Assembly: GCA_964016885.1 (NCBI GenBank)
Contig: OZ024741.1
Span: 55,490,001 to 55,554,000 of the forward strand
Length of the DNA: 64,000 bases
Reading direction: 5' to 3'
DNA from: Eledone cirrhosa
Lineage: Eukaryota
This document shows positions 17,669 to 59,989 of the stretch, in pieces (within the stretch, counting starts at the first letter, position 1; each line of letters starts with the position of its first letter). A program made the position numbers and the translations under genes. Below the pieces are notes generated by a model. That model was not told the origin of the DNA and ran no database searches. It worked only from the letters and a program-made list of their open reading frames with translations.

Positions 17669-17693
17669 TGGAATATAACAAAGGAATATTCCA

Positions 17694-17800: not shown

Positions 17801-17934
<134 letters not shown>

Positions 17935-28079: not shown

Positions 28080-28080
28080 C

Positions 28081-28093
28081 TGGTGACCGACGT
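28081..28093 (+). promoter_or_regulatory. Primer binding site, probably tRNA-Trp (2-nt deletion)
   Basis: TGGTGACCGACGT compared with the tRNA-Trp complement TGGTGACCCCGACGT. Confidence 0.7.
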
Positions 28094-28773: not shown

Positions 28774-29554
28774 ATGAATGCGCCACATTTGCCCGCCTTT
28801 ACCGGAAAACCTAAGCTGTGGTTTGCCCAGTTACAGGCGTATTTTACGGTCTTTAAGACCGAGTCTGACCAACGCCTTGCTGTCGTGATTAGCGGACTTC
28901 CCCCTAATCTAGCAGATTCGGTCCAAGATCTAATTATAGACCCCCCCCCCCCCATGACTTAACGTATGAGTCTTTGAAAGGCGAGATTTTGAGAAGGAAC
29001 TGTAAGTCGGTAGAGAGTCCTTTTCGGTCATTGATCGAGGACGAACGATTAGGTGACAGGACCCCTACCGCTTTTCTCCGGCATTTGCGGGATTTGAGCG
29101 ATTCCCAAGATCAGGATAGCCCTTTCCTGAGGCAATTGTTCTTCTCTCGCCTACCTCAAGAGGTACAGGCGATCCTAGCCCATATGCTAGAGGTAAATAC
29201 CCTCGACCACATTGCTGTCTCTGCTGACAAAATTGTAGAAGTGACGAAGAGAGACACTTCGAAGCCAAAGTACGTTGCTTCCTCTTCTCTTCCTCAATCA
29301 CGCTCATCAGCGAGTGATGAGAAATTAGTCACCACAATGGAAGCCATGACTCGTTAAATGGCGGAGTGTGCCAGGAATTCAGGTCTTTTGGACGGCAGAG
29401 GAGCCGCTCACGAACTTATTCAACTCCTCGCCACCGTAGCCCTTCCAAAACACCAAAACCACCATATTGTCATTACCATCATAAATATAGTGACAAAGCC
29501 GCCCGTTGTAGGCCTCCTTGTGCTTACATGGGAAACGACGACCAGAGTCACTAA
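28774..29554 (+). pseudogene. gag: gag, disrupted
   Basis: LPAF..KPKLWFAQLQAYF, LGDRTPTAFLRHLR and CHYHHKY..KAARCRPPC; stops and frameshifts. Confidence 0.85.
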
Positions 29555-29589
29555 CGGCGGATAGTGCGCTCTGTAAACATCATCCAACC

Positions 29590-32500: not shown

Positions 32501-32710
32501 GACAGGCTTAAGCAGGCACACCTTGACACGGACGCTGTGGTTCCTGATCCACGAACCTCTTCGTATTTGCCTGTTGAGCGAACGCCTGTTCCTGAACCAC
32601 CATCATCGCCTGTCCCTACACGACCACCATCGCCACGTTACAAGACCACGACCCGTTCAGGTCGTAGGGTCCACTGGCCCAAAAAGTTTTGCAGCACCGT
32701 CTATATTTAG
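29590..32710 (+). CDS. pol: pol polyprotein (protease frameshifted near FLVDTGA; RT, RNase H and integrase open for 1019 aa)
   Basis: FLVDTG, YIDD, DAS..GAVL and [35 protein letters not shown]. Confidence 0.95.
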
Positions 32711-32931
32711 ACTATGTTAGCTGCACCTTTTTTTTGCTTCTGTGTTTCTGCTTTTTCTTTGCCTTGTTTTTCATGCATGTTTTTTTTTTTTTTAACATTT
32801 TTCAAATCCTTATTTTGGATTTAATGATTGGTAGAGCGAATAGCTCCCCCTTGTTGCATTGTTCGCCATCTTACTCCACATGTGAGTAATGACATCGATT
32901 TTCGATGATTTGAAAATCTGGCAGGAGATAC

Positions 32932-33378
32932 TGTAGTAAGACGCCTCACATCCCCTGTCGGATAATAGAACAACCCATAGTTATCTCCCCCTGGTTGAGA
33001 ACACGAGAGGTAAACAGACAGCCACTGAAAAGCAGACTGAGCACACGCCACAGAAAACAGCCTCTGTACCACGAAACGATAAACAGCCAAGGGAACAGCA
33101 AACCCCACAATACTTTTGTAATTGTAATTCACCACAACTGACCGCGTCTATATTTGGTATGTTTTATTTGTAATATAATAAACACATATAACCAAAATAA
33201 ACATCACCATTATTTACAATTGTTGAATATAACTCTCGTTGTGGTTATTGTCTTGTTTACGCACACACCCCACTCACTTTGTTATAATTCTCACAAACAA
33301 AAATGGTAAATAGACGAGGGACCTTCCCTCACGTCTATGTCAATAAACAATCTAACTAGGATACTTCATTTTACCACA
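32932..33378 (+). repeat. 3' LTR
   Basis: Copy of 27626-28079 with a 7-bp deletion and a few substitutions. Confidence 0.95.
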
Positions 33379-33410
33379 CATATATTTATATATATATATA
33401 TATATATATA

Positions 33411-34277
33411 GTAGAATAATCGAGTATCGAAAAATCGGCGCACGAGTTCACGATAAACAAAATTCGAGATGAGCGGCAGAGGGCTCCATAATTCAAATAA
33501 ATCAGAGCTATAACTATCGTTAAAATACCGTCACACGTAGAATATGTCTACAATCAACCAAACAACCGAAAAATTGCGATATGGAAGATTCGGGACACTC
33601 AGATAAATTACCAATAAATCAATAAATCAAATGAATGTAAAAAGCATACCCGGACCCACTAGAGATATGGTATATCTAGCTTCTTGGGTTTCTGTAAATC
33701 CTTAAACCGTCCTCTATCAGCTCACATAAAAATATAAGACTTACAGACGACGGGGGACTGGAGTTACTTCTTCAACGAGCTTTAGTCCGAACGGATGAAA
33801 AGACAAAACCCAGGCTGAAAATACGCACATGGATTTCAGCAAGGGAGATAACCTTTATATCCGCAAAAAATATTCGGGAAAATGTGGAATAACACATATC
33901 GAATAAGAGTGCTCAATAGACATGTTAAAATAAACAGGAGCTATTCATCATTTAATAGAATCGACAAAAAAATGAACAATAAAATTAACTGGTCAATAGC
34001 TAGGTCTAGAGCTAAATATAGTAGAATAATCGAGTATCGAAAAATCGGCGCACGAGTTCACGATAAACAAAATTCGAGATGAGCGGCAGAGGGCTCCATA
34101 ATTCAAATAAATCAGAGCTGTAACTATCGTTAAAATACCGTCACACGTAGAATATGTCTACAATCAAACAAACAACCGAAAAATTGCGATATGGAAGATT
34201 CGGGACACTCAGATAAATTATCAATAAATCAATAAATCAAATGAATGTAAAAAGCATACCCGGACCCACTAGAGAGA
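33411..34277 (+). repeat. 1.4 copies of a 610-bp unit (256-bp direct repeat at 33411 and 34021)
   Basis: GTAGAATAATCGAGTATCG...CCCGGACCCACTAGAGA occurs twice. Confidence 0.9.
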
Positions 34278-34484
34278 TGTTCGTTTCTGAATTTGTTTAG
34301 CAAGATTCTTTATCTGAAATCGTGTGTTGAAACCGATATTGTTATACTTTGGGAGGGTCATGTTGCCAATAAGAAACACACGCACCAGTTGCTTTCACTT
34401 CAATTTATTATAATAAATTTATAATAAATTTATAAATTTCTAGTTGGTTGGTTGGTTCCACAACCAGATAGTTGTTTATATATT

Positions 34485-34527
34485 GTCATAGTTCTTTCGT
34501 CACACACTCTGTGACCTCTTCAGTGAC
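34485..34527 (-). ncRNA. Minimal type-I hammerhead ribozyme, family 3 (PLE 3' region)
   Basis: Reverse complement of 39392-39434. Confidence 0.78.
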
Positions 34528-34732
34528 TGGGGATTCCTTTCTTTGTTTCTGTGCCTCTCCTTTGTTCTGTCCTACGCCATTTTGTTTCTGTGTGTGTGCT
34601 GTGTGCTCAGTCTGCGCATGCGCCACATCCGGGTGTCTGTGTGTGTTTATGTTCATTTATTTATTTGTTTATTTATTTACATGTTACTGGTTGGTTGTTT
34701 GTTCTATGTATGTGTGTGTTTTCATTTTGTCC

Positions 34733-37700
34733 TTAATTGTAAGTTGTGATGTTGCTGTTCCACTCATATTTTCTATTTAATTTTGGTTGTAATTCTTTTA
34801 TGTTTATTGCCTCTGTGATTTGTCTAAACATTGCGTCTTTTCTGTGTGTAGATTCTATTTTTATTTCTATGTTCTCTAATTTACCCTTGTGTTCTATTTT
34901 ACCATGTTGGTAGAGTACAGATGATTCTTTACTATCTTGAAGGTCTCGCCAGTGTTCATTTATCCGTTCCCCTACACTACGAGCTGTCTCACCTATGTAC
35001 ACTATATTTTTGTCTCTACATTGTCCTTCAGTACATCTTATGCTATACACTACATTTCTAGTTTTACAGTTAATATGGGGGCTTATTTTACAGGTTATAC
35101 ATTTCTTATCTATACATGAGGGTCTTTGAAAAGGGTATGTCTTGCTAATAAGTGTTTTTATGGAGGTACCTAGTCTTTCTACTATCTTAATGTTGAGTTT
35201 ATGTTTATCTAGGGCCCTTCTAAATTTGTAGGCTAATTCACCTATAGGGGTTGTATCGATGAACATTACACTCTGGTATTTATTGCTATCATACCATGAG
35301 TTTATTCTATTAGCCTTGTTCCTAGTTCTTTCTATTCTATTCCAAAATTTGCTCCTATACAAGGGACAGGTCCCATTTATGTCATTATTTACCATTTTTT
35401 CCCATTTGGTTCTGGCTCCTCTATATACTCTGATTCTATCTCTCTGATTGTAGCCAGAGAACTGCATACGGTGGATGAAGTGTTGTATGTGTCTCTCTAG
35501 TTCTTCGGGGTTGCACATGCGGGACACGTTTCTCATCACCCGTACCAAATCCGCAATCAGTATGTTGATTTTGGTATGGTCCGAAACGGCCGAGTTTCGG
35601 TGGATCAGATGTTTGGAAGTCATGGGTTTGGCATAATGGGAATGGAGGATTTGTTTTTTGTTATTAATGGTATCTAACCAGAGCTCTATGTCTAGTACAG
35701 GTAATCGTTGGTTGGGGTGTTTACTTGGGTAGTCTATAGTAACTCTAATGCTCTGGTGGATGGAGTTAGCTATTTGCTGGATGCTTTCCATTGTGTTTTT
35801 CTCTAGTTCCTGACTGTTCTCTTGTGGGGGTGTCTTAACTACGATGTTTATATCATCAACGTAGCGGGAGTACATTATCAGGGTTAAGGGGTCTTCTAAT
35901 TGTTCTTTAAGTTTAAGTTTAAGTCTACTGTCCCACCATAACATGAATAAGTTAGCTATGTCGCCTGCAATGCTAACACCAATGGCTGCTCCTTCCTCTT
36001 GGACATATGTTTTTCCATTAAATTTGAACATATGTTCCTTAAGGGTTAGTTTTATGCTGGCCCCTACCGCATGTGTAATCATTTTCTTCAGTTCATCTAT
36101 CTGTGTGGGTTTTCTTGGCCATTGAGGTAATGGTAGGTGGTCTGCCTCTTGCTGGTCTTGTAGGGCACTGGTTGCTAAGGTCATATGTGTCTAGGTAATT
36201 ATTACTATAGGTAAGTTTAAGTAGGAGTCCCAGCTCACTGGTATCAACCCCACGGAACTCAACATTGCTCTCACTGATCATTTCTACGCATTTCTCCACA
36301 GCAAAATCCACGTCAATAGATGGATACAGGGACACAACATCCATACTACCTATTATGAAGTTTGTTATGTCCCTAGATCGGTTACCCTCGCCGATTCTGC
36401 TGAGGAGGTCCTCCGTGCTGTCACATACATCTGGGGACATTTCAATGATGGGGCGTATGATCAGGGAGAGGAAGTAGGACAGTCTGTAGTTACTAGCAAT
36501 GTTAGCTCCACAGACTGGCCGTGTTGGTGGTCCCGCGACAGGGTCACTGCCCGTTTTATGGTATTTTCGAAGCCCATACAACGCCGGCACGTCATTGTTC
36601 CAGGCCTGGAAGTTGTTGGCAGTCCTTTTGTTGGGCTGCATTATATTCCTCCACATCACCATATGGGCATTGAGGGCTTTTTCTCTATCCTCATGCTCCT
36701 GTGGTGTTACCTCTCTTGTGTTAGTGATGTGGGGTTGCATTGCCTGGATGTAGTTTGGCAGGCTCTCAACCGACATTCTGCCAGACTTGTCTGTTGGAAA
36801 GCATGCTATCTCTCCATTACGTGAGCGCTGCATGAGCTTACGCAAGCCATTTGCAGATTTTTCTCCCAGTTGCTGGGCCTCTATTCTATTATGCTTCTTG
36901 CTATACTGTTCTATAATATTTCTAATTTCGGATCTAGCTATACTAAATTGTGCTTCTGTTTGTTCATCGACCTGCGACGGCAATTGCGTGCGTTTGTTAA
37001 ATGGTAAAGTCGTGGCGTGGACTCGTCGCAGGTCGAACGATTTATCCGAGGGATTATAAAAAGTAGAGTTCCAGGCTGCTGCTTTATGTGTACTAGTGCT
37101 ATTGTTATTGTTAGTTGTGTTGTTTCTATTTCTATTTCCACCAACAGCCTCATGGTTGTTTCTATGTCTCTCATAATTACTCCTGTCTCTTTCCACTGGC
37201 TCATTGTTGTTATCTACCCTATTTTGTGTGTCTGTGTGTTCGTCTTGGTTATTTTCTTTGTCCTTAGTCTCCCTTCTCCTTTTAATCCTATTACTTTCCC
37301 TTATTTCTGTGATTTCTGTGCTACTGTCATTACTTGTTTTCTGTGTCTGTGTGTTTGTTAAGATTGTCGTGGTGGTGAGAGGCATTGAATGTGTGTGTGT
37401 TGTTGTTGTTGATGTGTGCTGTTGTTGATGTGTGTGTTATTATTGTTGTGTGTGTTGTTATTGTTGTTTGTGTCTGCGTGTCTGTTGTTGTTGTTTCTGG
37501 GTATGTTATTATTGTTGTTGTTGTTGGTGTGTGTGTTGTTGTTATTGTTGTTTGTGCCTGTGTGTCTGTTGTTGTTGGGATGTGTGTTGTATATGTGTGT
37601 GCGTATATTGTTGCTTTTGTTTTTGTTTTTGTTTTTGTTTTTGAGGCTCCAGCGTAGTTTTGTAAAGGATTTTCTATTTCTGACAGACAACCAATCATAT

Positions 37701-37815
37701 TTACCTTCTGAATGTCGCAAATTTCGGGGGTAGACGTAATACAGATAACTCATCGTCATCTATTACTGTGTTGCCGTATATATTTGTGTTGTTGTTGTTG
37801 TTGTTGAACTCATCT
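34733..37815 (-). pseudogene. PLE reverse transcriptase with C-terminal GIY-YIG endonuclease (Naiad-like), frameshifted
   Basis: LRLPPKFA, KLRW, TDKSGR, LYGLRK.HK, GPPTRPVCGA, GSMDVVSLYPSID, GAAIG, RYVDD, Cys-rich linker, VVYSIRC..YIGETARS. Confidence 0.92.
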
Positions 37816-39186
37816 GTTAATGATGAACTGAAGAAAATGATTGCACATGCGGTAGGGGCCAGCATAAAACTAACCCTTAAGGAACATATGTTCAAATTTA
37901 ATGGAAAAACATATGTCCAAGAGGAAGGAGCAGCCATTGGTGTTAGCATTGCAGGCGACATAGCTAACTTATTCATGGTATGGTGGGACAGTAGACTTAA
38001 ACTTAAACTTAAAGAACAATTAGAAGACCCCTTAACCCTGATAATGTACTCCCGCTACGTTGATGATATAAACATCGTAGTTAAGACACCCCCACTAGAG
38101 AACAGTCAGGAACTAGAGAAAAACACAATGGAAAGCATCCAGCAAATAGCTAACTCCATCCACCAGAGCATTAGAGTTACTATAGACTACCCAAGTAAAC
38201 ACCCCAACCAACGATTACCTGTACTAGACACAGAGCTCTGGTTAGATACCATTAATAACAAAAAACAAATCCTCCATTCCCATTATGCCAAACCCATGAC
38301 TTCCAAACATCTGATCCACCGAAACTCGGCCGTTTCGGACCATACCAAAATCAACATACTGATTGCGGATTTGGTACGGGTGATGAGAAACGTGTCCCGC
38401 ATGTGCAACCCCGAAGAACTAGAGAGACACATACAACACTTCATCCACCGTATGCAGTTCTCTGGCTACAATCAGAGAGATAGAATCAGAGTATATAGAG
38501 GAGCCAGAACCAAATGGGAAAAAATGGTAAATAATGACATAAATGGGACCTGTCCCTTGTATAGGAGCAAATTTTGGAATAGAATAGAAAGAACTAGGAA
38601 CAAGGCTAATAGAATAAACTCATGGTATGATAGCAATAAATACCAGAGTGTAATGTTCATCGATACAACCCCTATAGGTGAATTAGCCTACAAATTTAGA
38701 AGGGCCCTAGATAAACATAAACTCAACATTAAGATAGTAGAAAGACTAGGTACCTCCATAAAAACACTTATTAGCAAGACATACCCTTTTCAAAGACCCT
38801 CATGTATAGATAAGAAATGTATAACCTGTAAAATAAGCCCCCATATTAACTGTAAAACTAGAAATGTAGTGTATAGCATAAGATGTACTGAAGGACAATG
38901 TAGAGACAAAAATATAGTGTACATAGGTGAGACAGCTCGTAGTGTAGGGGAACGGATAAATGAACACTGGCGAGACCTTCAAGATAGTAAAGAATCATCT
39001 GTACTCTACCAACATGGTAAAATAGAACACAAGGGTAAATTAGAGAACATAGAAATAAAAATAGAATCTACACACAGAAAAGACGCAATGTTTAGACAAA
39101 TCACAGAGGCAATAAACATAAAAGAATTACAACCAAAATTAAATAGAAAATATGAGTGGAACAGCAACATCACAACTTACAATTAA
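37816..39186 (+). CDS. 5'-truncated inverted copy of the PLE RT/GIY-YIG C-terminal half
   Basis: Open frame from DELKKM to the stop; only about 4 amino-acid differences from the minus copy. Confidence 0.9.
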   Translation, partial: VNDELKKMIAHAVGASIKLTLKEHMFKFNGKTYVQEEGAAIGVSIAGDIANLFMVWWDSRLKLKLKEQLEDPLTLIMYSRYVDDINIVVKTPPLENSQELEKNTMESIQQIANSIHQSIRVTIDYPSKHPNQRLPVLDTELWLDTINNKKQILHSHYAKPMTSKHLIHRNSAVSDHTKINILIADLVRVMRNVSRMCNPEELERHIQHFIHRMQFSGYNQRDRIRVYRGARTKWEKMVNNDINGTCPLYRSKFWNRIERTRNKANRINSWYDSNKYQSVMFIDTTPIGELAYKFRRALDKHKLNIKIVERLGTSIKTLISKTYPFQRPSCIDKKCITCKISPHINCKTRNVVYSIRCTEGQCRDKNIVYIGETARSVGERINEHWRDLQDSKESSVLYQHGKIEHKGKLENIEIKIESTHRKDAMFRQITEAINIKELQPKLNRKYEWNSNITTYN

Positions 39187-39391
39187 GGACAAAATGAAAA
39201 CACACACATACATAGAACAAACAACCAACCAGTAACATGTAAATAAATAAACAAATAAATAAATGAACATAAACACACACAGACACCCGGATGTGGCGCA
39301 TGCGCAGACTGAGCACACAGCACACACACAGAAACAAAATGGCGTAGGACAGAACAAAGGAGAGGCACAGAAACAAAGAAAGGAATCCCCA

Positions 39392-39434
39392 GTCACTGAA
39401 GAGGTCACAGAGTGTGTGACGAAAGAACTATGAC
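39392..39434 (+). ncRNA. Minimal type-I hammerhead ribozyme, family 3 (PLE 3' region)
   Basis: gtca-CTGAAGA-g-GTCAC(agagtgt)GTGAC-GAA-AGAACT-A-tgac, about 205 nt downstream of the ORF stop. Confidence 0.78.
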
Positions 39435-39575
39435 AATATATAAACAACTATCTGGTTGTGGAACCAACCAACCAACTAGAAATTTATAAATTTATTATAA
39501 ATTTATTATAATAAATTGAAGTGAAAGCAACTGGTGCGTGTGTTTCTTATTGGCAACATGACCCTCCCAAAGTAT

Positions 39576-39645
<70 letters not shown>

Positions 39646-39650
<5 letters not shown>

Positions 39651-39713
39651 CAATCATGAGGTTGTGAGTTCGATTCTCTGACCGAGCGGTGCGGCCATTT
39701 CATATATATATAC

Positions 39714-39785
<72 letters not shown>

Positions 39786-40020
39786 TAAGTGAAGGCATAT
39801 GGTTTAGTGGTTACAGCTTTGGATTCACAATCGTGAGGTTGTGAGTTCGATTCTTTGACCGAGCGGTGCGACCATTGCTTCAGTTCACTCAGATGTAGAG
39901 ATGAGTTGCCAAACTGTATCGGCTCTTCTGTTTCCCATCGGTGGAGCGGGGACCGAAGATTGGTATGTGTGGGCGACTGCTGGTCTGTCACCACTTTGCT
40001 AGGGCTAATGACTCGGAGCT
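39646..40020 (+). mobile_element. tRNA-derived SINE (39789-40020) plus a truncated head (39646-39702)
   Basis: A box TGGTTTAGTGG and B box GAGTTCGATTC. Confidence 0.75.
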
Positions 40021-40164
40021 CTTATATATATATATACTTAAGTTAAATATTGATGCAATTCAATTCAACCACTCAACGTACTTTTTCCACATAGGAGTGA
40101 CGGAGTAAGTATTGAATAAGAAAAAGCGAACTAGTTTCAGATGTTAAAGTCCTTTAATAATAAT

Positions 40165-40239
40165 GCTGTGATACATATTTCAATGACGACAGTGACCACA
40201 CGCTTCGGTGTGCCCAGTGCCGTGACATCATCAGACAGC
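40165..40239 (-). ncRNA. Minimal type-I hammerhead ribozyme, family 4
   Basis: Reverse complement of 40800-40874. Confidence 0.78.
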
Positions 40240-40799
40240 TTGTTACATAATAAGGTTACGTTTCCGAGGCAATCCAAATTGAATCGACATGGGAACGGAC
40301 AAAGCGTGTGCTCTTGAGTTCTTCGCCCGTTCCCTTGTGAGTCCCAATTCACCCCCACCGGTCTGCACAGGTGCAAGTCCGAAGGAAGTTGACCATCAAC
40401 TATCGCAGAGTTCTATGAAACTCACCTAGGCAGGTCTCCCCCTCTCAACCAAACAATGACCCCATCCAGGCCTGTAATATGACACGGTTATAGCTTACTG
40501 CTAGCCACCCTGTTAGTGGCAGCCGGCCGAAAGCTAGTGGGGGTAGGAGAGTATGAGTATCAATAGGTCCCAATACTACCCCTAAATTAAGCATGGACAG
40601 TAGAACCTCCTAGGCGAGTTTCGTAGAACTCTGCGGTAGTTGATGGTCAACTTCCTTCGGGCTTGCGCCTGCGCAGACCGGTGGGGGTGAATTGGGACTC
40701 ACAAGGGAACGGGCGAAGAACTCAAGAGCACACACTTTGTCCGTTCCCATGTCGATTCAATTTGGATTGCCTCGGAAACGTAACCTTATTATGTAACAA

Positions 40800-40874
40800 G
40801 CTGTCTGATGATGTCACGGCACTGGGCACACCGAAGCGTGTGGTCACTGTCGTCATTGAAATATGTATCACAGC
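40800..40874 (+). ncRNA. Minimal type-I hammerhead ribozyme, family 4
   Basis: gctgt-CTGATGA-tg..(long stem II)..catt-GAA-ATATGTAT-C-acagc; AUC triplet. Confidence 0.78.
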
Positions 40875-43792
40875 ATTATTATTAAAGGACTTTAACATCT
40901 GAAACTACTTCGCTTTTTCTTATTCTATATATATATATATATATATGTATGAAATATTGATCGTTTGTCTTGTATCTCATGTCCGTTTTTGCCTGAAAAA
41001 ATACCTCTATGTGTGTATAAATAATACATACATATATTTATTTTTTTAATATCCAATTGAGTTCTTCACGCGTGGTTAAAATTCCTGACAGAATTAATTG
41101 ACCAGCGTATATATTATTTTATCTTTTGCGATGACCACCCCTTCCCGTTTGGGGACAGTGTTAAATTTCTTTTTGTGAGACTGCTGGAATTTCATATTTG
41201 GCGGTCATTCTAGCACTGACGGGGTCCATCGCTGAATATTAATATCAGTATGGTTTTTTATATTGATATTACTGGGCATCCGCTGATGATTTATAAGTGT
41301 CCACCTCAATGTATACCTATGGGCTATGTGCAGTCTTCTACATAACCTGGACATTATTTTCCCAATTTGTAGAAAACTTATAATGAAACGATCGTTAGGA
41401 AGGAGAGATGTATTTAATTATGTCTCATATAAAATAATACAGCTGGCTATCTGCAAAATACATATAGTTAGCACCCCAAACATATAATTGGGATTATACT
41501 CAGGTATATCCTAATGTTTGTTGAGTGTAATGGGTGTCGGTCGGAGTATTGCTTTCTCTGTTAATGTATTAAGTATACATATATATTTAATATAGAAATG
41601 GCTTCTACGGGACTAGAACTGTTTCATTGAGTACCTTACTGTAGTTACCCCCGATTGAACCCGGGATAAACTTACATATATATATATGTGTGTGTGTGTG
41701 GAAATAAAGGTATGGGTGTGTTTTATTTTTATATAAATAGCTACATTCATTCACGTGATTGAATCGTCTTTGAATGACTAAAACATTCACCTCACTAATT
41801 TCGTTCAAGTCATCCGTCGTTGGAAGATCTTATGGAAACTTCAAACAACCGTTCGCAGTTTCTTTTTAATCCTGAATGAATTATTAATGTTTGGAAATGT
41901 TTAGAAGGCTTTCCTTGCATGCTTCATAAATCTGCTATCAGATTCACTGATTGCCCGAAAATTACTCGAAAAAAAAATAATAAATAAATAAAGGCTATAT
42001 AGAGGAATAATATTCTATTATCTCGAATTGTGTACATTTACAATGTTGTTTATAACTGATACAGTTGAACCACTTTATGACGGAGACACTATTATCCTAT
42101 AAGAGAGAAAGAAATGGCTTTCTTAGTGCTAAAGATAATAGAATTAGGATACTGTTGCTATATACATATATATATATATATATGTATATAGCTGGCTCCA
42201 AGAAAGGTTAATTAACTTACATTTTCGATTATTAATAAAATTGTGTTTACGATGTACGTTTAAGCAAAGATAAACATTTAATTCTATCATCTATTGTATG
42301 AGTATTTATTTGATTTCAAGATTTATGGATTTCTATAATGTCATTATCTATTACTTTGTTGGTGAATATACGAAGTAATTTCATCAGACAATGTTCTTTA
42401 GTTTATGTTCATATACGGTTCATAAGAATTGTTGTTATTTTTTATGGAACATACATATAAATAAGTATTGTCGTGTCTTAGATTCTCGATTAAAGAGTTT
42501 TGAAAAACGCTGTATGTGTGCGTGCGCAGGTGTATATAAGGTTGTATTTCTGAGGTCACCGCTTAACAATCTTCTAGTAAGAAATTTGGCCAGATGAATT
42601 TATATATAATTAATAATTAACAACTCATAATACTATATCATAGTTTATTTCTATCGCCGTTTTTCTCTTGACATTTCTTAGTTTTATTGGTCTCTCAGTT
42701 CTATAAATTTGGTAGTACAGTTTGCTAAAAACAATAATCCAAAGTGTGGCAAGTCGCAACTATTCTAGTCATTAGAAAAAGCAAAACGAATGTTTCACCT
42801 CTAGAAGAGGGGTGACTCAGGACGAGAGAGATAAGTGATTTACAAATAAAAGAAACACCACGAAATAACTAAGCATATCTAACCCCAATATTCCAGTCCC
42901 TTCACAATCACACGTAGAAAATAATTTGGTCAATATCCAGAGCCTCAACACATAGATATTACACCAATAAATTGACCACCGCAAAAAAATTTACATTAAG
43001 ATTTATAAAAACTCTACTCACACAATTAAAACATTAAAAATTAAATATGAAATAACTTTTAGTAAATTAAATAAACACTCACACACAAAATGTATATCTC
43101 GTTTATTTAGGTAACATATTTATTAAAACAACAGAAAATTACCACCACAACAATTTACAACCTATAGTAGGAGTTTCAAACGTCTAGCCCTCGGGTCGCA
43201 GGCAGCCCCAAACAACTTTTCTATGGTCCACAGTAAAATAATTTTCGTGACTAATATTTTCCTAAAACTTGATAATTAGGAAAATTTGTCCCTCTACATT
43301 TTGTATTAATTCACATATCTCACTTACTCCCATGTGTATCCATTTTGATTTAAAAAAAACAATAAACAACAGCCTATCAGCTGCATACCATTATAGTTGG
43401 TGGAAATTATGCCTGTCTCTCATCTCACTTTTGACCCACTATACCTCTTTCCCAGGACATAATAGCCCTTCTGAGTCCTTGAATTTGAGATGTCTGATCT
43501 ATACATTAACAATCAGATACCATATCACCCTGTCACAATTCTACTACTTTTGTGAAAACGTTCGAATTCCAACATTCAGTCACTACTTTTCCTACTCTCT
43601 TAGTACCAATACTAGGGGCTAGAATTAGCAAAAATATCCTAGATAGAATTATCCCGACCATCAGTAAAAAGGTAACTCTTAACTTATGGGGGAACACCAA
43701 TCAAGTAATTAATTTACCTCGATAGAAAGCCTGATACTCGGCGGTTTCGGCTAGTTACCTCTTCGAGGAGGTCGGCCATATATATATATATA

Positions 43793-44258
43793 AAAGGGTA
43801 TGGGTATTCCAACAGGCACTAGGTACCTACAGAAATATGCATGGTGTTTATAATAGTTGTGGTTCGATGGTACTAATTTGAGATACCAGAACTATAAAAA
43901 TGAGTGGAGCAAGCAATTATCAAACAATCCTTTAAATAAATTAAAAAACGATTTAAATATTCACCTGTTCTATTGCCGTTACCGACGGTTTCACTAATCA
44001 AAAGATTGGAAATCCAGAGAATTTCCAATGGAAAGAATTAGATCTTCAGACAGCTATTTCCATACTATAAGGGTACAAAACCTCACAGTAAGTCAATATT
44101 TCGCTTACTGCCCGACGCATGCGGTCAAGCCGTTGAAGTGACGCACACGCAAAAATAGGCTACAAGTAGTGAAACCGTCGGTAACGGAAATAGAACAGGT
44201 GAATATTTAAATCGTTTTTTTTATTTATTTAAAAGATTGTTTGCTCCGCTCATTTTAT
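43793..44258. mobile_element. Asymmetric fold-back in (TA)n: tail 43793-43893, arms about 43894-43996 and 44168-44258
   Basis: Inverted arms; full HHR on the left and only the 3' half on the right. Confidence 0.8.
43975..44054 (-). ncRNA. Type-I hammerhead ribozyme, family 5
   Basis: Minus strand: gctgt-CTGAAGA-t-ctaat..ttggaaat..atttccaa..attag-t-GAA-ACCGTCGGT-A-acggc; GUA triplet. Confidence 0.78.
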
Positions 44259-44414
44259 ATATATATATATATACGATATTATGTGTAAACAAGCCCGTAG
44301 CCATGCTGGACCACCTCTAGCAAAATATTCTGTATTCATCGATAGGATTCGAACTTAGGCGTTAAGAGCCCTTTATGATGTTCTACTCCATCACCATAAC
44401 AACTCAACCAATTG

Positions 44415-44504
<90 letters not shown>

Positions 44505-44701
44505 ATTTAATAATCTCCACTTATGTTTGTTGTTTTAGTGTCTTCTACCAACTCTCCAGTCTACTTTCATCCTTCATAAAGATAATATTTCAACATCTCA
44601 TCATTAGCGAATGTAATATAATCATCCCCAAACTTGTAGCTATTATTTAAAGGCATTATATATATTGACTTCCAATCTATTATATATATTTGTGTGTGTG
44701 T

Positions 44702-44735
<34 letters not shown>

Positions 44736-44738
<3 letters not shown>

Positions 44739-44840
44739 GGTACATAGTTAAGTGGTTAACGTATTAGGCACGTTGTACCTTGAGGCAGACAGTTTATTTC
44801 ACGTTGCCCCAGTCCACTCAACTGGCAAAAAAGAGCTCTA
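44736..44840 (+). mobile_element. Internally deleted SINE
   Basis: GAAGG..AGTGGTTA head followed by a CCAGTCCACTCAACTGGCAAAAA core-like segment. Confidence 0.5.
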
Positions 44841-44878
44841 TGTATGAATGTGTGATCTTTCACACACACACACACACG

Positions 44879-44938
<60 letters not shown>

Positions 44939-44975
44939 TCTTCACATTTATTATTATTACTATATATATATATAT

Positions 44976-45195
44976 ATTATTGAGTAAAATGACAGGAGGC
45001 CGGGCGGGTGAAATTCCTTCAAAGATTTATTTCGGCATTTTACTCAATAATGATTAACTCCGTTCTCCCACCACCAACAGGATTCAACATCAAAGATGGA
45101 TGAGTTGCATAACGTCGAGTGCTATTCCTAATGTTACATCATTTTTGGCTATACGGAATGACCAGTTCTATCCAGTGGTTAACCACCAAACTTAA

Positions 45196-45198
<3 letters not shown>
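44976..45198. mobile_element. Mini fold-back with a tail homologous to family 1
   Basis: 16-bp arms ATTATTGAGTAAAATG / CATTTTACTCAATAAT; tail 45052-45198 aligns to the reverse complement of 17417-17555. Confidence 0.75.
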
Positions 45199-45249
<51 letters not shown>

Positions 45250-45663
45250 TACAAAACGAAAGATCAGTGATGCATCTGAACTCAATTTATTGTGTGTTAC
45301 AATTGTTTCGCCGGCGGACAGCTCGAGACGCGATCATTGTGTGGATCTGTCTGATTCTGGACTCGCATGTTCGACGGACACGTCTAATGATTTCGGAGCA
45401 TATTCTCTCATATATATATATATATATATATCGGTGGATTTCAGAGGGGAGACTGGTATGCATGGACTATTGGTGGTTTTCACAAAAAACACCTTGCTGG
45501 GACTTGTGGCTTGGTAGGGAAACTTTCTGGATGCATATCTCATGGTTTTTATATTTTTTTTATTTATAACTGAAATTACAGTCAGTTGCCATACAATACC
45601 TTATAAAAATTGGGTAACGCCCTGAGAGATTCGTAACGATATTTCAGCGGCCGCTACGAGGAA

Positions 45664-45737
<74 letters not shown>

Positions 45738-45829
45738 TCTCTATCTAACTCTATCTCTCTCTGTTTATCTCTCTATCTCTCTCTCTATCTCTCTATCTCT
45801 CTCTCCCTTTCTCTATCTAGCTATCTGTA

Positions 45830-45860
<31 letters not shown>

Positions 45861-45936
45861 CCGTATGTGGTTGACATCTCAGACCCTGAGATAAACAGTC
45901 GAAACTCCAGAGTAACAAGACTCACTATTTAGCCTT

Positions 45937-46008
<72 letters not shown>

Positions 46009-46010
<2 letters not shown>

Positions 46011-46335
46011 GTCAGCATAGACGAATCCGATGGTAACAATTTAAAGTTGGTGGCCCTAAAGAGAGCTTTGGATTGTTCACTCTTAAAAGTCTCAGCGGTG
46101 GTGCTGCCAGCAAAGACGAATCCAGCGATAACAATTTATAGTTAGTGGCCCTGAAGAGGACCTTTTAACGTTCACTTTGAAATATCTCAGCGGTGGTGCT
46201 GCCAACAAAGATGAATCCGATGGTAACAATTTAAACTTGGTGGCCCTGAAGAGGGCCTTGGATCGTTCATTCTTAAAAGTTCCAGCGGCAGAGCTGTCAG
46301 CAAAGATGACTCCGATTAGAGGTGGTGGCCCTTAA
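46009..46335 (+). repeat. Tandem repeat, 95-bp unit, about 3.4 diverged copies
   Basis: CTG(T/C)CA(G/A)CA.AGA.GA.TCC at 46009, 46104, 46199 and 46294. Confidence 0.85.
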
Positions 46336-46699
46336 GAAGCCCTTCACACCACTTTGGTGTGTCGTATTTTCTTTGATTGTTATTTGAGATTGTAACCTAG
46401 AAAAGCATGTAACAGTCGGTGGCCACAAAAACCGCGTTGGCAAGATCACGCTGGAATGTTAAAAAAATGTGTAAATAAGATGTATGGAAAAGTAGATTAA
46501 TTAGGTTAAAACTACGGAATATCGATAGCAAAGCGTAATAGCAACATATAAATGCGGAAAACGGAGACATTGAACATTTATAACGTATAGCAAAAGCAAC
46601 CTCAGAGGCGTACGTGGTATTGTCAAAAGGACAAAAATAGCACACGGATACAGCAAATGTAAGCACTTATACAAAAAAAGAAACAGCGATTACTTGTTT

Positions 46700-46865
46700 T
46701 CAAATTCCTGAGGAGCATGACAGGGGCACCTTCCTTAAGTCGCAGTAAGTGTGGTGGCAATCCGGGAGAGTCTAACGAGTTTAAAAATTCTGTGGGGTAA
46801 TTAACAACTTCGTCCGGATCAGCCATAGAGTCAAGGGACTTGTAGACGTGCAGGTTTCCAGGCAA
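46700..46865 (-). pseudogene. Helitron PIF1-family helicase fragment
   Basis: [38 protein letters not shown]. Confidence 0.9.
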
Positions 46866-47032
46866 GCACAGTGTAGTCGGAGGAGGGGTCGTAGTTAAAG
46901 GCCTTCAACAACCATCGTGAATTGCAAGTCATAGAAATGCCACATAACGATGATCACAGCTGTTCACTTTGCAGAAGTCGGCCATGTCGTTGCTCTATGG
47001 TTTCAGAATTTCGTGTAGCAGTAGTGGCAGCG

Positions 47033-47440
47033 GCGTCCCTGCTTCGTCGAACGGCGCGTCGTCCTTCATCCTCTCGAGCGCGAGCGGCGGATGTTGAAGT
47101 GGCGTCCCTGCTTCGTCGAATGGCTCATTGTCCTTCATCCTCTCGAGCGCGAGCGGCGGATGTTGAAGTGGCGTCCCTGCTTCGTCGAACGGCACGTCGT
47201 CCTTCATCCTCTCGAGCGCGAGCGGCGGATGTTGCAGTAGCGTCCCTGTTTCGTCAATCGGTGCGTCATCCTTCATCCTCTCGAGCGCAAGCAGCGGCTG
47301 TTGCAGAGGTGTCCCTGCTCCATCGAATGGCTCATCGTCCTTCATCCTCTTGAGCGCCAGCAGCGGCTGTTGCAGTGGCGTCCCTGCTTCGTCGAACGGT
47401 GCGTCGTCCTTCATCCTCTCGAGCGCGAGCAGCAGCATCT
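47033..47440 (-). repeat. 69-bp (23-codon) coding tandem repeat, about 6 copies, STPR-like
   Basis: Period of 69; an unlisted minus frame reads AAARAREDEGRRAVRRSRDA.. downstream of the ATG at about 47620. Confidence 0.8.
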
Positions 47441-48679
47441 TTGTTCCGTCGAAGTTCACGCCGACTCTCATCCTCCTCCGCTCTTGCAGCTGCCGTCTGC
47501 ACAGCATTCTGTGAGAGCCTGATCGCAGTCGGATTTACATCTTCGGTGAGACGCCTTCGCTTAGACCTACTTGCATCTTTAGATAATCAACCAATGAAAG
47601 TTCTTTTCTTGGGGGGCATTGTTTTCAGAAATTAACCAGGGAGAACGATAAATAGTGGACAAATAACGTTTAAGTAAGCAAATCTAAACACGGATATAAA
47701 TTGTGAAAAAATGTGATCTGAGAAAGTTTTGCAAGATTTTGTGTACCAGTCAAATTTCAGGTTTTAAGTTAGAGGCAACGCAGCGTACGGACTACGTGTG
47801 ATAAAGGAAATTAAATATAGTGTGGCTACAGTGGTAGGTATATAAGCGTCAGTATATTTGTTCAGTTCGAACATAGCAAGTAAGTACTAACCACTGAAAG
47901 GATACAGGCAAAAATGGCCGAAAAATCACAGCATGATAAACTGGAACCTTATGACCATAAACACATTAACTAAATCTCCTTTAAGATGACAAATTTTGAA
48001 GAAGCATGCGTTTCAGAAACATGGTGTAGCTTATGAGAGTACGCATGTAAAAAAACCTACCACTTGTCAAAAGCCAAAAAAGAAGTGTGATCCTAGGTCG
48101 GACTTGACCAATATAAATAGGAGTGATTTCGCTCAATGAACAACACTCGAGTTGTCTGAATGGTTAGATAATACAAATAAGTGTGATGAAATCTACTGAA
48201 CACAACTCACTGATGTGTGGTTGGCCAGAGGTCACCATTTCGCACTTAATTGAGGTGCAATTAAACGGGGGAGACAACCGGGTGCAAAAACTAATCAATC
48301 ATTCGCACAGTTTAGGCATGAGTGTGAAATAACACAATCCACATACAGTAGGCTTTAAAATTTACACCTGGGTTAAATCGCGCTTTCTTGGTTAGGAGTG
48401 TGAAATGACGCCAAATTTCAATGAAAAAAATTGAACTGCCCATTCCGCACTTAATTGTAGTGAAATTACACAGGGGATACAACCGGGTGCAAAATTAAAT
48501 TCAATCATCCTAAATTTTACTAAACAAACTAAAGTTAAGTCAGGGAGATTTAAAAATTCGCTACTCCATTTGTAGGACATGAGTAACCGATGCGTCAACT
48601 TTCGTTTAAATTGACTTTTATTTCCAGAAATTGAAATGATTTGCTGCAACCATAATATGAACTTTAAAAGTGGTCCAAA

Positions 48680-49620
48680 GGGGCTCACTGCCCTCCCTAG
48701 GGGGTTCTCTTGCAAAATTCAAGTGATAACGAATGTGTGGTGCTTTATCTTATGGCAGGCAATAACCATTTTGTTTAGTTTTTGTAAGAATCAAGTATAA
48801 ACTCCCGAGGTTATGGTACTTTTTTACTGTGGCAGTTTGAACTATTATAGGTTAATGGATTGGGCTCATTGTCCCCGAGGGGGTCCTTTTGCTGAATTGA
48901 CATAAAAGTAAATGTGCCTCACTGTATCTTCATCTGTAGTACATGAATAACAACTAAGTCGAAATTCGTTTCATTGGACTACCAATTATCGAAGCTATGC
49001 TGCATTACAATAGCCAAAATCAATAAATGACTCGCCGGGGCTTACTGCCCCCTGGGGGTCCCCTTGCTTGTTCCGGGTATAGACAGTGTCTTCAACATCA
49101 TCTTTAGGCAACCAATGTGTCGGGTAAAGTTAAAATCGAACGTAAACTTCAAAAGTTATCAGGTACTAATACAGTGTTAATGTGAACTTCAATAGATAAG
49201 TCGAAGGGGCTTACTACCCCCCCCCCCCCCCACCCCACCCAGGGGTCACCTTGATAAGTTCAAGTAAATGATTATGTGTTCACTTTCCTTTATAAGCCAT
49301 GGGTAACCAATACGTCTCGCTTCGTGAAAACTGAATACCAACTCAAGCAGTTATGACGTTTTGTTGCATTGATGATATCAACTTCAACATTCATCAAGTC
49401 GGTTTACTGCCACACACCCCCCTCCCCACAAGGGCTCCTCTACTTGAATTTCTGCGCAAGCGCATGCCTGCATATTTATTTGTAGGCCATAAGAAAACAT
49501 AAGATTAATTTTGGTGAAGATGGGAGGCAAACTGCAGTAATTATAGGGCCTTTATGCAGAAACACTGCTGACGCCAAACGAGAGGCTAAAGTGGGTTATC
49601 TGCCCCTGGGGTGGCCCACA
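48680..49620. repeat. Diverged minisatellite (unit about 170-200 bp) inside the Helitron 5' region
   Basis: GGGCT(C/T)ACTGCCCC..GGGGGT motif near 48681, 48862, 49037, 49206, 49401 and 49595. Confidence 0.6.
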
Positions 49621-49775
49621 ATCGATGTACGGGAAAATAAAATAGCCTACGATGCGTAATATGACTTCAGAAACCTATGGATGAAATTTGGTACAAATCG
49701 GTTGTAAAATGTAGAAATGCATGCGGTTACACAGATAGACAGACATCTTCTGTTTATATATATAGATATAGATAT

Positions 49776-50090
49776 ACACAAAAACAAGATGGCGTAGGAC
49801 AGAACAACGGAGAGGCACAAAAACAAAGAAAAGAATCCCCAGTCACCGAAGAGGTCACAGAATGTGTGACGAAAGAACTTTGACAATATATAAACAATCA
49901 TCTGGTTGTGGAACCAACCAACCAACCGGAAATTTATAAATTCCTAAATTTATAAATTTATTATAATAAATTGAAGTGTAAGCAACTGGTGCGTGTGTTT
50001 CTTATTGGCAACATGACCCTCCCAAAGTATAACAATATCGGTTTCAACACACGTTTTCAGATAAAGAATCTTGCTAAACAAATTCAGAAA

Positions 50091-50093
<3 letters not shown>
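49776..50093 (+). mobile_element. Solo 3' end of the Naiad PLE, including the full tail
   Basis: Matches 39328-39582 plus the reverse complement of tail 34281-34338; ends in (AT)n. Confidence 0.9.
49842..49884 (+). ncRNA. Degenerate family-3 hammerhead (core CCGAAGA, probably inactive)
   Basis: U4>C change and a CUU triplet; stems retained. Confidence 0.55.
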
Positions 50094-50125
<32 letters not shown>

Positions 50126-50190
50126 CATTTCAGAGAATATCTGTCTCTTTATTGCTCTCCACCTATCCGTCTCTCTATATATTCTTAGAC

Positions 50191-50244
<54 letters not shown>

Positions 50245-50645
50245 GATGTGCGTGTGTGTGTGCGTGTATATATATGTGTGTGTGTGTGTAACACAGATAC
50301 ACACAAAAGAAACTCTATTATATGATGTTTGAGTTCCTGGGATAACCTCATCAGTGAGATAAATATTCGGAATAGAAAAAAATCCAAGTAAGCTATACGG
50401 AAGATAAAAAAAACACTAAAAAGCAGGTATACCCACCAGAAAGAAGTTCCAAAATAGCTTACCAAAACATTCTGTCAGCCAACAAGTGGGATTAGGAATA
50501 GAATCAAGATGGCTGCATATGCAAATATGGTTTCACTTTTTTCTTTTTTTTTTCGGTACATTAATCTGATATACATACATATATATATATATAGATATAG
50601 ATATATATATATGCATATATACATGTAAACACACACACTCACTCA

Positions 50646-50710
<65 letters not shown>

Positions 50711-50711
<1 letters not shown>

Positions 50712-50893
50712 ACAAAGGAATTGTGGTAAGGAACGAGATGGACCATAACGCACCAGAGTACTCAATACTTAGGGTAGTAGACTGGGAAATATGAAAAAGT
50801 ATGACCCCGACGGCAGAGCTCAAGCCGTTTCGACGGCCAGAAATAGCCGTCGAAACGGCTCGAGCTCTGCCGTCGGGGTCATACTTTTTCATA
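50711..50893. mobile_element. Mini fold-back in (TA)n: 76-bp tail and 49-bp arms folding inside HHR stem II
   Basis: Hairpin 50788-50893 containing GAAACGGC..GCCGTC (HHR 3' half). Confidence 0.8.
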
Positions 50894-51259
50894 TATATAT
50901 ATATATATATATAAATGAAAAGTATAGAAATTTTTGTAGCAAGAAGCCAACAGTATTCCCTAATATATAAGTGACTATAGCGTCAAAATGGAAAAATAGT
51001 TAACATAAGATGTGGGAAAATAATTCAAACTCAATTCAAAAAGAATCAGGATATAGATTTATCAACAGAATTTTGTGAAATCCATGGAAAAATCAATATA
51101 TATATTAACTCAGAATAAAATAAAGTTTAAAATACTCATCCTTCAATTTGGAAAAACTACAATGCTCTGTATATTCTTAACGACTATTTCACGAAACTTT
51201 CAGTGGGGATGGCCACGGTTGGAGTCGATCATCAGCAGACCTCAAAGACACTATAACCA

Positions 51260-51301
<42 letters not shown>

Positions 51302-51304
51302 GTA

Positions 51305-51351
<47 letters not shown>

Positions 51352-51384
51352 ATGTGTGTGTGTGTGTGTGTGTGTGTTTGTGTG

Positions 51385-51430
<46 letters not shown>

Positions 51431-51433
<3 letters not shown>

Positions 51434-51623
51434 TTTCTGAATTTGTTTAGCAAGATTCTTTATCTGAAATCGTGTGTTGAAACCGATATTGTTATACTTT
51501 GGGAGGGTCATGTTGCCAGAAATTTATAAATTTATAAATTTATAAATGTATAATAAATTGAAGTGAAATCAACTGGTGCGTGTGTTTCTTATTGGCAACA
51601 TGACCCTCCCAAAGTATAACAAT
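51431..51623. mobile_element. 193-bp mini fold-back of the Naiad PLE terminus
   Basis: Same two end points as the 5.3-kb element (TCGTTTCTG... and ...AGTATAACAAT); (TA)n on both sides. Confidence 0.88.
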
Positions 51624-51904
51624 ATATATATATATATATATATATACGCTTGGAATAAAGGTATTTCTATATTCGTTATTCTGTATTAATCCGGATTCAC
51701 GTAATATAAAGTTTGAATGTATATATATATAGAGAGAGAGGTGGGGGGAGAGAGAGTGAGAGAGAGAGGGAGAGAAAGAGAGAGATAGTGAAATATATAT
51801 ACTTGCACAAACATACACTCATACACTCTTGTATACATACGTCTTCTATTTTGGTATTCTTGAAAAACCGTAGGGTTTGCAATCTTTGGTCTTTTGTGTA
51901 CGTA

Positions 51905-51982: not shown

Positions 51983-52769
51983 TGTGTGTGTGTCTGTGTG
52001 TGTGTCTGTGTGTCTGTGTGTCTGTGTATGTGTCTATGTCTGTGTCTGTTTGTGCGTGCGTGTGTGCGCGTATTTGTTTTTATGTGTGTGGTGTGTTATA
52101 TGTATTATGTAAGTGCCGCATGCTGTGCATTCGTGTAATCTATGTATGAGTGAGAGTGTTTATGTGTGTGTGTGTATGTGTGTGTGTGTATGTCTGTCTG
52201 TGTCTGTGTGTGTGTGTGTGTGTGTCTGTGTGTGTGTGTGTATGTGTGTGTGTGTGTTTGTGTTCTCATGCGCATGTGTGGGCCATATGAGTTTGTCGAT
52301 TTCTGTATGTATGCAAGTATGTATGCAAGTATGTATGTATATATGTATGTATATAAACCTGTTTGTATGTATTCATGTACGTACTTATGTATGTATTTAT
52401 GTATGTACGTACTTATGTATGTATGTATGTACGTACTTATGTATGTATGTATGTATGTATGTACGTATGTACGTATGACCCCTTAGCCTTTGTCAAGGCA
52501 GAATTCTAGGAGAAGGAAAACTCTGATATAACACCTGCAACCCTGATGGTATCCAATGATGTTGACTTGTTCTTCTTTTTGGTAAATATCATCTTGGTTA
52601 AGAGAGTGGGACTGGCTTTGTGCAGTGCCTTTGCTCACTATAAAAGCTTCACGGCACAGGCATTGCTTTATATCTGGAGATCTCTCTGCACTTGTCATCA
52701 CATGGTACCATGGGCCCAGCACTATGTGTCAGTAATTGTCACAAGTGTAGTGTTTGTACCAGAGAAGTT

Positions 52770-53590
52770 TTCGAGTTCTAACATCCATCTCACTTAGTTC
52801 TTGCAATGACCAGTTCAGTAGGCCAAATGTTGGCGTTAGAATTGGCACAGCATAAGTATTGTGGGCAATGTATTTGTTGTATGCTGACAGTTCTGATGAC
52901 CATATTTTCTTTACTCTTCTGAGGTATTCAGTTCTGGTTCTCTCCTTATTTATGGGTCCATCATATCTGACATTCTCATCCTGTCCAAGATATCTGTAGT
53001 TGTCACCTGACTGCAGAGGTTGTATTGTCAGGCCGTTCATCTCTAGATTTCTAGAGGAGGGCACAGCTCTTCCACGTTTTACTGCCAAATATGCACACTT
53101 GGACTCACCAAATTTCATTTTGATGTCGGTTGAAAATTGTGTAATGAGGTCCAATTGTTTCTTGGTGTCATTGATATTTGGCCCATACAACTTCAGGTCA
53201 TCAACAAAGAAAAGATGGGAGATACTTCTGGTCCCACTTCTTTGTCGACCTTGTTTCCTGAGTAGGTAAGATAGTGGATTCAGTGAGAGAACGAAGAGTA
53301 GCACTGACAAGCTATCACCCTGAAAGATGCCCTTCTGGTAATGTATCTTATCAGTCTTAACCTGCTCCTTCTCACCTCTAAGGATCAAACTGGTGTACCA
53401 GTTCTTGGTCAGGCGTTCAACAGCAGCTACCAATGGTTGTGGGACTTTAGCTAACTGTAAAGCCTTAACAATCCACCCATGAGGTACACTATCAAATGCT
53501 TTTTGATAGTCCAGCCACACGACAGTCATGTTTCTGCGATTCTTTGTTGTTTTTTCCTGAATCATTTTGTTAGTTAGTAGGTGATCTATG
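52770..53590 (-). mobile_element. R4/Dong-like LINE RT fragment
   Basis: WLDYQKAFDSVPHGW, GIFQGDSLS, SHLFFVDDLKLY and YRYLG. Confidence 0.9.
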
Positions 53591-53727
53591 CACGTATCTA
53601 TGTACGTACTTATGTTTGTATGTATGTATGTATTTATGTATGTATGTACGTACTTATGTATGTACGTATGTATGTACGTATGTATGTACGTACTTATGTA
53701 TGTACGTATGTATGTATGTATATATAT

Positions 53728-54228
53728 ATGATGGTATCCAATGATGTTGACTTGTTCTTCTTTTTGGTAAATATCATCTTGGTTAAGAGAGTGGGACTGG
53801 CTTTGTGCAGTGCCTTTGTTCACTATAAAAGCTTCACGGCACAGGCATTGCTTTATATCTGGAGATCTCTCTGCACTTGTCGTCACATGGTACCATGGGT
53901 CCAGCACTATGTGTCAATAATTGTCACAAGTGTAGTTTTTGTACCAGAGTTTTCAAGTCGCTGGCTGGACTAAAAAGTCACACTCGTTCAGCGCATCGGT
54001 AGGGGTTCTCCTACATGGATATAAAGTAGTGGCCGTACTCGAAAACGAGTTGGCAGCCACCATATATATATGTATGTATATGAACATGTATGTACGTATT
54101 CATGTACATACTTATGTACTTACTTATGTATGTATGTATGTATGTATGTACGTTCAGCGCATCGGTAGGGGTTCTCCTACATGGATATAAAGTAGTGGCC
54201 ATACTCGAAAACGAGTTGGCAGCCACCA
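53728..54228 (+). repeat. Repeated non-coding module (copies at 52475-52770, 53728-54061, 54152-54227 and 60977-61473)
   Basis: Near-identical copies; three end at the same base, GAGTTGGCAGCCACC|AT. Confidence 0.85.
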
Positions 54229-59885: not shown

Positions 59886-59989
59886 ATATACATGTGTGTT
59901 TATATATATATATATATATACTATGAAGAGAGAAGAAACATTAGATATAATTAGTAATAAGATGTATCATACCTAAACTGCTTCTAAAT

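Follow-up and report, generated by a model that had tools for sequence, protein, structure and literature searches.

How can insertions of very different length share both of their ends? The question is raised by a 64,000-nt stretch of the Eledone cirrhosa genome (assembly GCA_964016885.1, contig OZ024741.1, positions 55,490,001-55,554,000 of the forward strand), referred to here as the window, whose own positions serve as coordinates. The window holds three copies of one Penelope-like element (PLE): a 5.3-kb fold-back, a solo copy and a mini fold-back. They have two common 3′ end points, an inner and an outer site, whose positions are counted (+/-) from the start codon of the element's open reading frame (ORF). 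The initial annotation of the window rightly recognized that the two fold-backs have identical end points, namely the outer and the inner site, that the solo copy ends at the tail terminus, which is the outer site, and that an ATAT within the element matches the target repeat. It postulated a programmed internal priming site 58 nt from that terminus.

The ends of copies throughout the genome support a programmed internal site. An anchor located upstream of both sites has 18,268 matches. End points were read in the first 100 of these, which all fall within the initial 25 Mb of contig C1; 47 lie at the inner site (+22 to +26), 52 at the outer site (+79 to +87), and one copy reads through. Scattered ends, the pattern that the initial annotation had named as evidence against such a site, are not seen, as none of the 100 copies ends between +27 and +78. 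Exact pattern matching across the genome recovers 25,602 occurrences of the 26 bases ending at the inner site and none of the reversed control. Among the former, 11,019 run on into the tail and 12,167 into an AT repeat (together 90.6%). The outer site is joined in register to an AT repeat at 12,002 exact junctions, and in 475 exact read-through matches the tail runs on into the ORF. These read-through copies place both ends within ORF codons 1-29, with the same motif, and the earlier view that only one end is internal is not supported.

This shared motif is seven bases long and contains ATAT. The 4265-nt unit has just two copies of it, which lie at +22 and +82, giving a spacing from motif to motif of 60 nt and not the 58 nt originally proposed. 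ATAT or TATA begins at 1.4% of positions in the unit, and the motif bases outside ATAT are also the same at both sites. The target repeat carries on the element's ATAT in phase, with out-of-phase junctions making up less than 1%. At the inner site, 12,167 junctions are in phase and 40 out of phase; at the outer site, next to the 12,002 in register, 2,618 are shifted by two bases and thus still in phase, while 90 are shifted by one and out of phase. The two-base shift does not reflect a template variant, because no read-through copy carries it, against 475 canonical matches.

Fold-backs nearly always combine one end of each kind. From 77 anchor-chosen loci, 41 opposite-facing pairs of arms were obtained, of which two were removed for an unclassable end and one for lack of contiguity. 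An inner and an outer end are joined in 37 of the 38 contiguous fold-backs that remain (with the non-contiguous pair included, 38 of 39; p = 1.5e-10 for an expectation of 50%). In a second sample, 40 loci picked for a shifted outer junction, the partner is an inner end in 16 of 17 cases and unclassed in the other. The arms of a pair also tend to agree in subfamily: over 55 pairs, 63 of 654 subfamily-diagnostic cells (9.6%) are discordant between arms, compared with 44.8% +/- 3.9 in shuffled pairs.

Nicking of both strands of the AT repeat, with each DNA end pairing over about four bases with an AUAU in the RNA and priming reverse transcription, would produce the two fixed ends, and we give this reading of the sequence patterns an even chance. 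The endonuclease of the element would nick both strands of an AT repeat. Each freed 3′ DNA end would then pair (~4 bases) with the AUAU at one of the two sites on the same RNA and prime the reverse transcriptase (RT). A dimeric protein may hold one RNA at both motifs, and the cDNA begun at the outer site would displace the one begun at the inner site. Both antisense cDNAs would stop early and have their 3′ ends joined; frequent stopping points would be a 14-bp palindrome (-85 to -72) and the 5′ end of the RNA near -245. The product would be two arms head to head, only one of which bears the 60-base tail, whereas a single surviving priming would leave a solo copy.

The components of this reading differ in standing. 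Copy ends very probably are RT start sites. In the PLE of the green anole, the borders of the tail are RT start sites inside the ORF, as shown in vitro, and the protein, a predicted dimer, cuts and extends both strands (PMC11167929). The pseudo-long terminal repeat (pseudo-LTR) and tail of PLEs cover the first ORF codons (PMC3846280), and two-site ends and one-sided tails are already known for this group. Pairing probably sets the register, and priming would then need the AUAU. The use of one RNA by both primers is slightly favored over its opposite. A second family that targets AT repeats (17395-17804 and 19262 onward) has a template match of four bases at its inner and three at its outer site, with a tail of ~150 nt. 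By eye, a fourth family (43921-44243) shows a short template match, and a genome search found no read-through copies of it.

Several observations weigh against the proposed scheme. RNA folding around the two sites is no better than in shuffled sequences (z = -0.19), while a stem-loop has been described at the anole site. In a third family (40110-40929), the inner site matches the repeat only past a mismatch. The share of junctions shifted by two falls from 17.9% overall to 14.2% (610/4,284) in copies unmutated over ~80 nt, and shifted copies carry 0.89 substitutions per copy against 0.45 (p = 0.07), so these junctions may stem in part from later slippage of the repeat. In-phase parity is predicted by a repeat primer that pairs with AUAU but equally by slippage after insertion, and a fixed start site combined with a fixed nick would likewise yield a fixed register. 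Target-site duplications are unreadable, both flanks being pure AT. One fold-back (L086) joins two outer ends, and the concordance of arms could result from gene conversion, or from subfamilies whose activity fell in different periods.

The same ends could instead be generated if the enzyme that cuts AT repeats also cut a tandem DNA intermediate at the two motifs, whose ends would join the target via ATAT. Such resolution by the endonuclease is deemed the likeliest origin of the tail in section 6 of PMC8557442, and it predicts an ATAT at both ends as well as the fixed register. Yet no 3′ ends fall at the unit's 59 further ATAT or TATA words, some of them in short AT runs of the pseudo-LTR, the in vitro data of PMC11167929 put RT starts at the tail borders, and resolution alone leaves the joining of one end of each kind unexplained. 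We regard it as unlikely.

Protein-set starts without pairing are described for the anole element (PMC11167929). Here, the motif would be a protein-binding mark, its register would follow from a fixed nick and a fixed start, shifts would arise by later slippage, and either one or two RNAs could be involved. The partial age dependence of shifted junctions fits this scheme, as do the identical motif bases beyond ATAT, which pairing alone does not require. Conversely, the presence of ATAT at both sites (1.4% per site) and the AT-rich matches of the second family would have to be coincidence or by-product. These considerations leave it unlikely.

The 5′ ends of copies bear on a further alternative. 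In the anchor-chosen set, 16 of 73 arms at risk stop at -250 to -229, roughly sixfold the frequency at adjoining positions (p = 4e-9, for an interval chosen post hoc). This pile-up sits between the NRF1-like and YY1-like motifs, and the solo copy starts at -243. Such stops likely represent run-off at the transcription start, which would account for solo pseudo-LTR copies. No excess is found at the predicted hammerhead cut (~-139), where 3 of 88 at risk between -146 and -133 match the background rate. A second excess coincides with the 14-bp palindrome (16 of 153 at risk), where the short arm of the mini copy begins; two antisense copies could anneal there. The palindrome also suits a snap-back in which the outer-primed cDNA folds at this point, serves as its own template and connects to the opposite target end via the inner-site ATAT. 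Self-priming at palindromes has been proposed (PMC3846280), and a snap-back yields one end of each kind and identical arms; the arms are of equal reach, within 30 nt of each other, in 16 of 47 pairs. In the remainder, the outer arm is the longer one in 17 and the inner arm in 14. That either arm may be longer argues against simple snap-back copying, since a tail-less arm cannot outreach the tailed one, yet does so in those 14 pairs, with a lead of as much as 2 kb at L083, as well as in the window's mini copy. Later one-sided deletions would be needed to rescue the scheme, and solo copies with an inner-site end are common. Snap-back is accordingly improbable.

Segmental duplication and deletion of one insertion, which the initial annotation had raised for the mini copy, has a negligible chance: the tailed arm of the mini copy is identical to the 5.3-kb copy at 88 of 88 bases, but its flanks show no similarity to those of the 5.3-kb and solo copies, so it is not a segmental duplicate, and tens of thousands of copies with varied flanks and lengths have the same ends.

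The copies in the window and their parts are listed in Table 1.

Table 1. Copies of the element, their internal features and adjoining sequence in the window.
Feature	Positions	Strand	Remarks
Non-related piece with 267-bp direct repeats	33403-34279		Fills the tail junction of the 5.3-kb copy
5.3-kb head-to-head insertion	34280-39583		Minus arm ends at +82 (34280), plus arm at +26 (39583)
Long arm of the 5.3-kb fold-back	34280-37821	-	5′-truncated, frameshifted PLE copy; ends at the outer site (+82)
Tail	34280-34335	-	ORF positions +27 to +82; in the minus arm only
Inner-site 7-base motif (+22 to +28) with ATAT	34334-34340	-	Same as the +82 to +88 motif of read-through copies
Minimal type I hammerhead motif (predicted) in the pseudo-LTR	34485-34527	-
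ORF piece: C-terminal part of RT, zinc-finger linker, GIY-YIG endonuclease	34733-36190	-
ORF piece: N-terminal part of RT	36093-37436	-	Frame differs from both adjoining pieces
ORF piece: N-terminal region, Asn/Thr-rich low-complexity stretch	37358-37759	-
Short inverted arm	37822-39583	+	1762 bp, 99.8% identity to the long arm; ends at the inner site (+26)
Motifs that we take to be NRF1-like (39296-39305) and YY1-like (39336-39344)	39296-39344	+	Flank the putative pseudo-LTR transcription start
Minimal hammerhead motif (predicted), second copy	39392-39434	+
AT repeat target	39580-39647		In-register continuation of the element's ATAT
Solo copy	49776-50098	+	Starts at -243 (5′-end hot spot), ends at the outer site with a junction shifted by two bases; flanked by AT repeats on either side
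Tailed arm of the mini fold-back	51426-51518	-	+86 to -7; two-base-shifted junction
Tail-less arm of the mini fold-back	51519-51625	+	-89 to +26; begins in the palindrome hot spot

The 5.3-kb copy was initially taken to be autonomous. Its sequence begins some 555 nt into the ORF, and two frameshifts divide its ORF into three pieces, which makes autonomy untenable. Likewise, the fold-backs had been described as abutting (AT)n. This applies to the inner end of the 5.3-kb copy and not to its tail end, which an 877-bp foreign piece separates from the AT repeat at 33380-33410. On its plus strand, the foreign piece contains a short stretch that by eye recalls the end of a Hydra-type endonuclease, and an ATAT follows its repeat end, an observation not counted as support.

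Intact versions of the element are found elsewhere in the genome. In 20 of the 475 read-through regions, four full-length ORFs of 1265-1318 amino acids occur at three loci. The intact 1318-residue ORF of locus L138 shows the order RT, CX4CxxC linker and C-terminal GIY-YIG endonuclease. This locus consists of two full tandem units that carry near-identical intact ORFs of this length and end at the inner site, with an Asn/Thr/His-rich low-complexity region of variable length N-terminal to the RT. Tandem units (pseudo-LTR) are present in L138, L140 and L154. The pseudo-LTR contains a predicted hammerhead of the minimal kind known from PMC4209133, with a core and stems I and II; an Rfam scan of the pseudo-LTR gave no family above chance, and the hammerhead was not scored. 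A Pfam search with the full ORF returned no hit; a search of the PDB by sequence gave a weak GIY-YIG hit alone, and an atlas search unnamed clusters only. The closest named protein among the matches listed is a predicted protein of Octopus vulgaris (69% identity).

The predicted fold of the protein points to telomerase, at modest similarity. The RT was aligned with 77 sequences picked for high coverage among 120 hits listed, and a fold model based on them has a pLDDT of 90 and retrieves TERT chains at ranks 1-3 in the PDB (TM ~0.35). Motifs A and B are 136 residues apart (134-143 in 77 of 77 aligned sequences), compared with ~68 in the Nematis row and canonical PLEs and ~123 in human TERT (hand count in Fig S1 of PMC8557442). 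A conserved insert of ~68 residues occupies the position of the telomerase insertion in fingers domain (IFD) in all 77 (L138:953-4909 and relatives among P0001-P0119). It has near-invariant Arg, Pro and Trp residues, and its fold is predicted well. Canonical PLEs are described as lacking the IFD. The insert may mark an undescribed clade of PLEs with a C-terminal endonuclease. A bolder extension is doubtful at present: that such a branch, widespread in public animal and metagenome data, primes in a telomerase-like manner, its TERT-sized fingers insert stabilizing a four-base duplex of a nicked AT repeat with an AUAU of the RNA, while a dimer reads two identical motifs, 60 nt apart on one RNA, and so primes both strands of the target.

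The element has the features of endonuclease-bearing (EN+) PLEs: a telomerase-like RT and GIY-YIG in one ORF, partial tandems, an inverted 5′-truncated copy and a one-sided tail. It was labeled a Naiad at the outset. Naiads have an N-terminal endonuclease and are without the canonical hammerhead according to sections 3 and 6 of PMC8557442. The label is wrong, because here the endonuclease is C-terminal to the RT and a hammerhead core is present; the element also has DKS where Naiads have DKA in place of DKG, DKS being shared with most displayed relatives. Insertion into TA repeats is a Naiad-like trait that is not diagnostic, because Neptune and Hydra share it. Neptune was rejected on the distance from the linker CxxC to the GIY-YIG core, ~25 residues there and 7 here. 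Hydra elements lack CCHH and have CxCX5C and DKT, whereas the GIY-YIG cysteines, CX4CxxC and DKS are found here (PMC8557442). The likeness is greatest to Nematis features: a C-terminal GIY-YIG, two cysteines in the motif and a short CX4CxxC linker seven residues before the next cysteine (by eye, Fig S2 of PMC8557442). Of the Nematis traits, the CCHH cysteines and the reduced CX2-5CxxC linker are present, and a fingers insertion, absent in Nematis, is present too. On this comparison of sequences, the family is provisionally filed as Nematis-like, its clade unplaced.

Other repeats share the AT-rich surroundings. Fold-back or solo pieces of four other families lie in AT repeats at 17395-17804, 19262-19554, 40110-40929, 43921-44243 and 59909-60692, and three of these families have one-sided tails of ~77, 105 and 150 nt, against 30-40 nt in the literature. 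A Gypsy-type LTR retrotransposon (27626-33379) with 455-bp LTRs that are 97% identical and a 1028-codon pol frame also sits in an AT repeat. Minisatellites are located at 23800-25101 (period 100 bp), 46009-46316 (95 bp) and 47027-47430 (69 bp), and a fragment of another non-LTR reverse transcriptase at 52729-53913 on the minus strand. Outside the window, L131-L137 (G000:C1:132947049-132947579) comprise at least 12 copies of a 46-bp unit that spans the outer site and ends in an AT repeat, an arrangement suggestive of recurrent priming or of local amplification there. At L078, L085, L086 and L094, very short tail-less pieces (~30 bp) that end at the inner site are inserted within the AT flanks of other copies. 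L077 has a short flank repeat.

In the twin priming of L1, both target strands prime on one RNA to give an inversion, but the position of the second priming varies and the two copies cover separate parts of the element. The family described here has overlapping arms and a fixed position for either site. Closer to the present element is the EN+ PLE unit of the Pen2a_Av type (PMC3846280, PMC8557442), which shares the inverted 5′-truncated copy, the tail at one end, a pseudo-LTR with the first ORF codons, an Asn-rich ORF stretch and palindromes at the inverted junction. It differs from the E. cirrhosa family in the latter's microsatellite target without readable duplication, its more than 25,000 end matches and its complementarity to the target at both sites. 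Section 15 of PMC8557442 names as open the origin of inverted, one-side-tailed PLE insertions and the preference for microsatellites. We found no report in the open-access literature searched of target-complementary two-site priming, of an IFD-sized fingers insert in a PLE with a C-terminal endonuclease, or of the fixed in-phase register and the pairing of inner with outer ends in fold-backs. With intact ORFs, two sharply defined motifs and ~12,000 junctions at each site, the question of PLE insertion becomes testable by mutation and rescue.

The nearest experimental parallel is PAc, a Poseidon-clade element of the green anole (Frangieh et al. 2024, PMC11167929). Common to both systems are two RT start sites, very probable ones in the present family, which delimit the tail and lie near the 5′ end of the ORF, along with AT-rich targets, use of both strands and a hammerhead motif in the pseudo-LTR region. 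By comparison, the present family has one identical, target-complementary motif at both sites with a fixed register, a tail of 60 nt instead of 30-40, sites at +22 and +82, a quantified pairing of one end of each kind and no stem-loop signal. The anole start is described as non-homologous, whereas a four-base in-register match exists here at both sites and may serve in pairing. If pairing sets the start, initiation in PLEs is not uniformly homology-free.

Should this reading hold, the element would resemble telomerase and the endonuclease-less Athena and Coprina PLEs, in which a short internal RNA is complementary to a simple-repeat DNA end (PMC2847249, PMC8557442). In TERT, formation of short RNA/DNA duplexes is assisted by the IFD (PMC2847249, PMC8557442), and the RT insert resembles this domain in position and size only. 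Unlike in those systems, the element would make its primer ends itself, by nuclease cuts within chromosomes, and the match is limited to ~4 bases. If pairing sets the start, the link in priming between PLEs and telomerase would reach nuclease-bearing elements.

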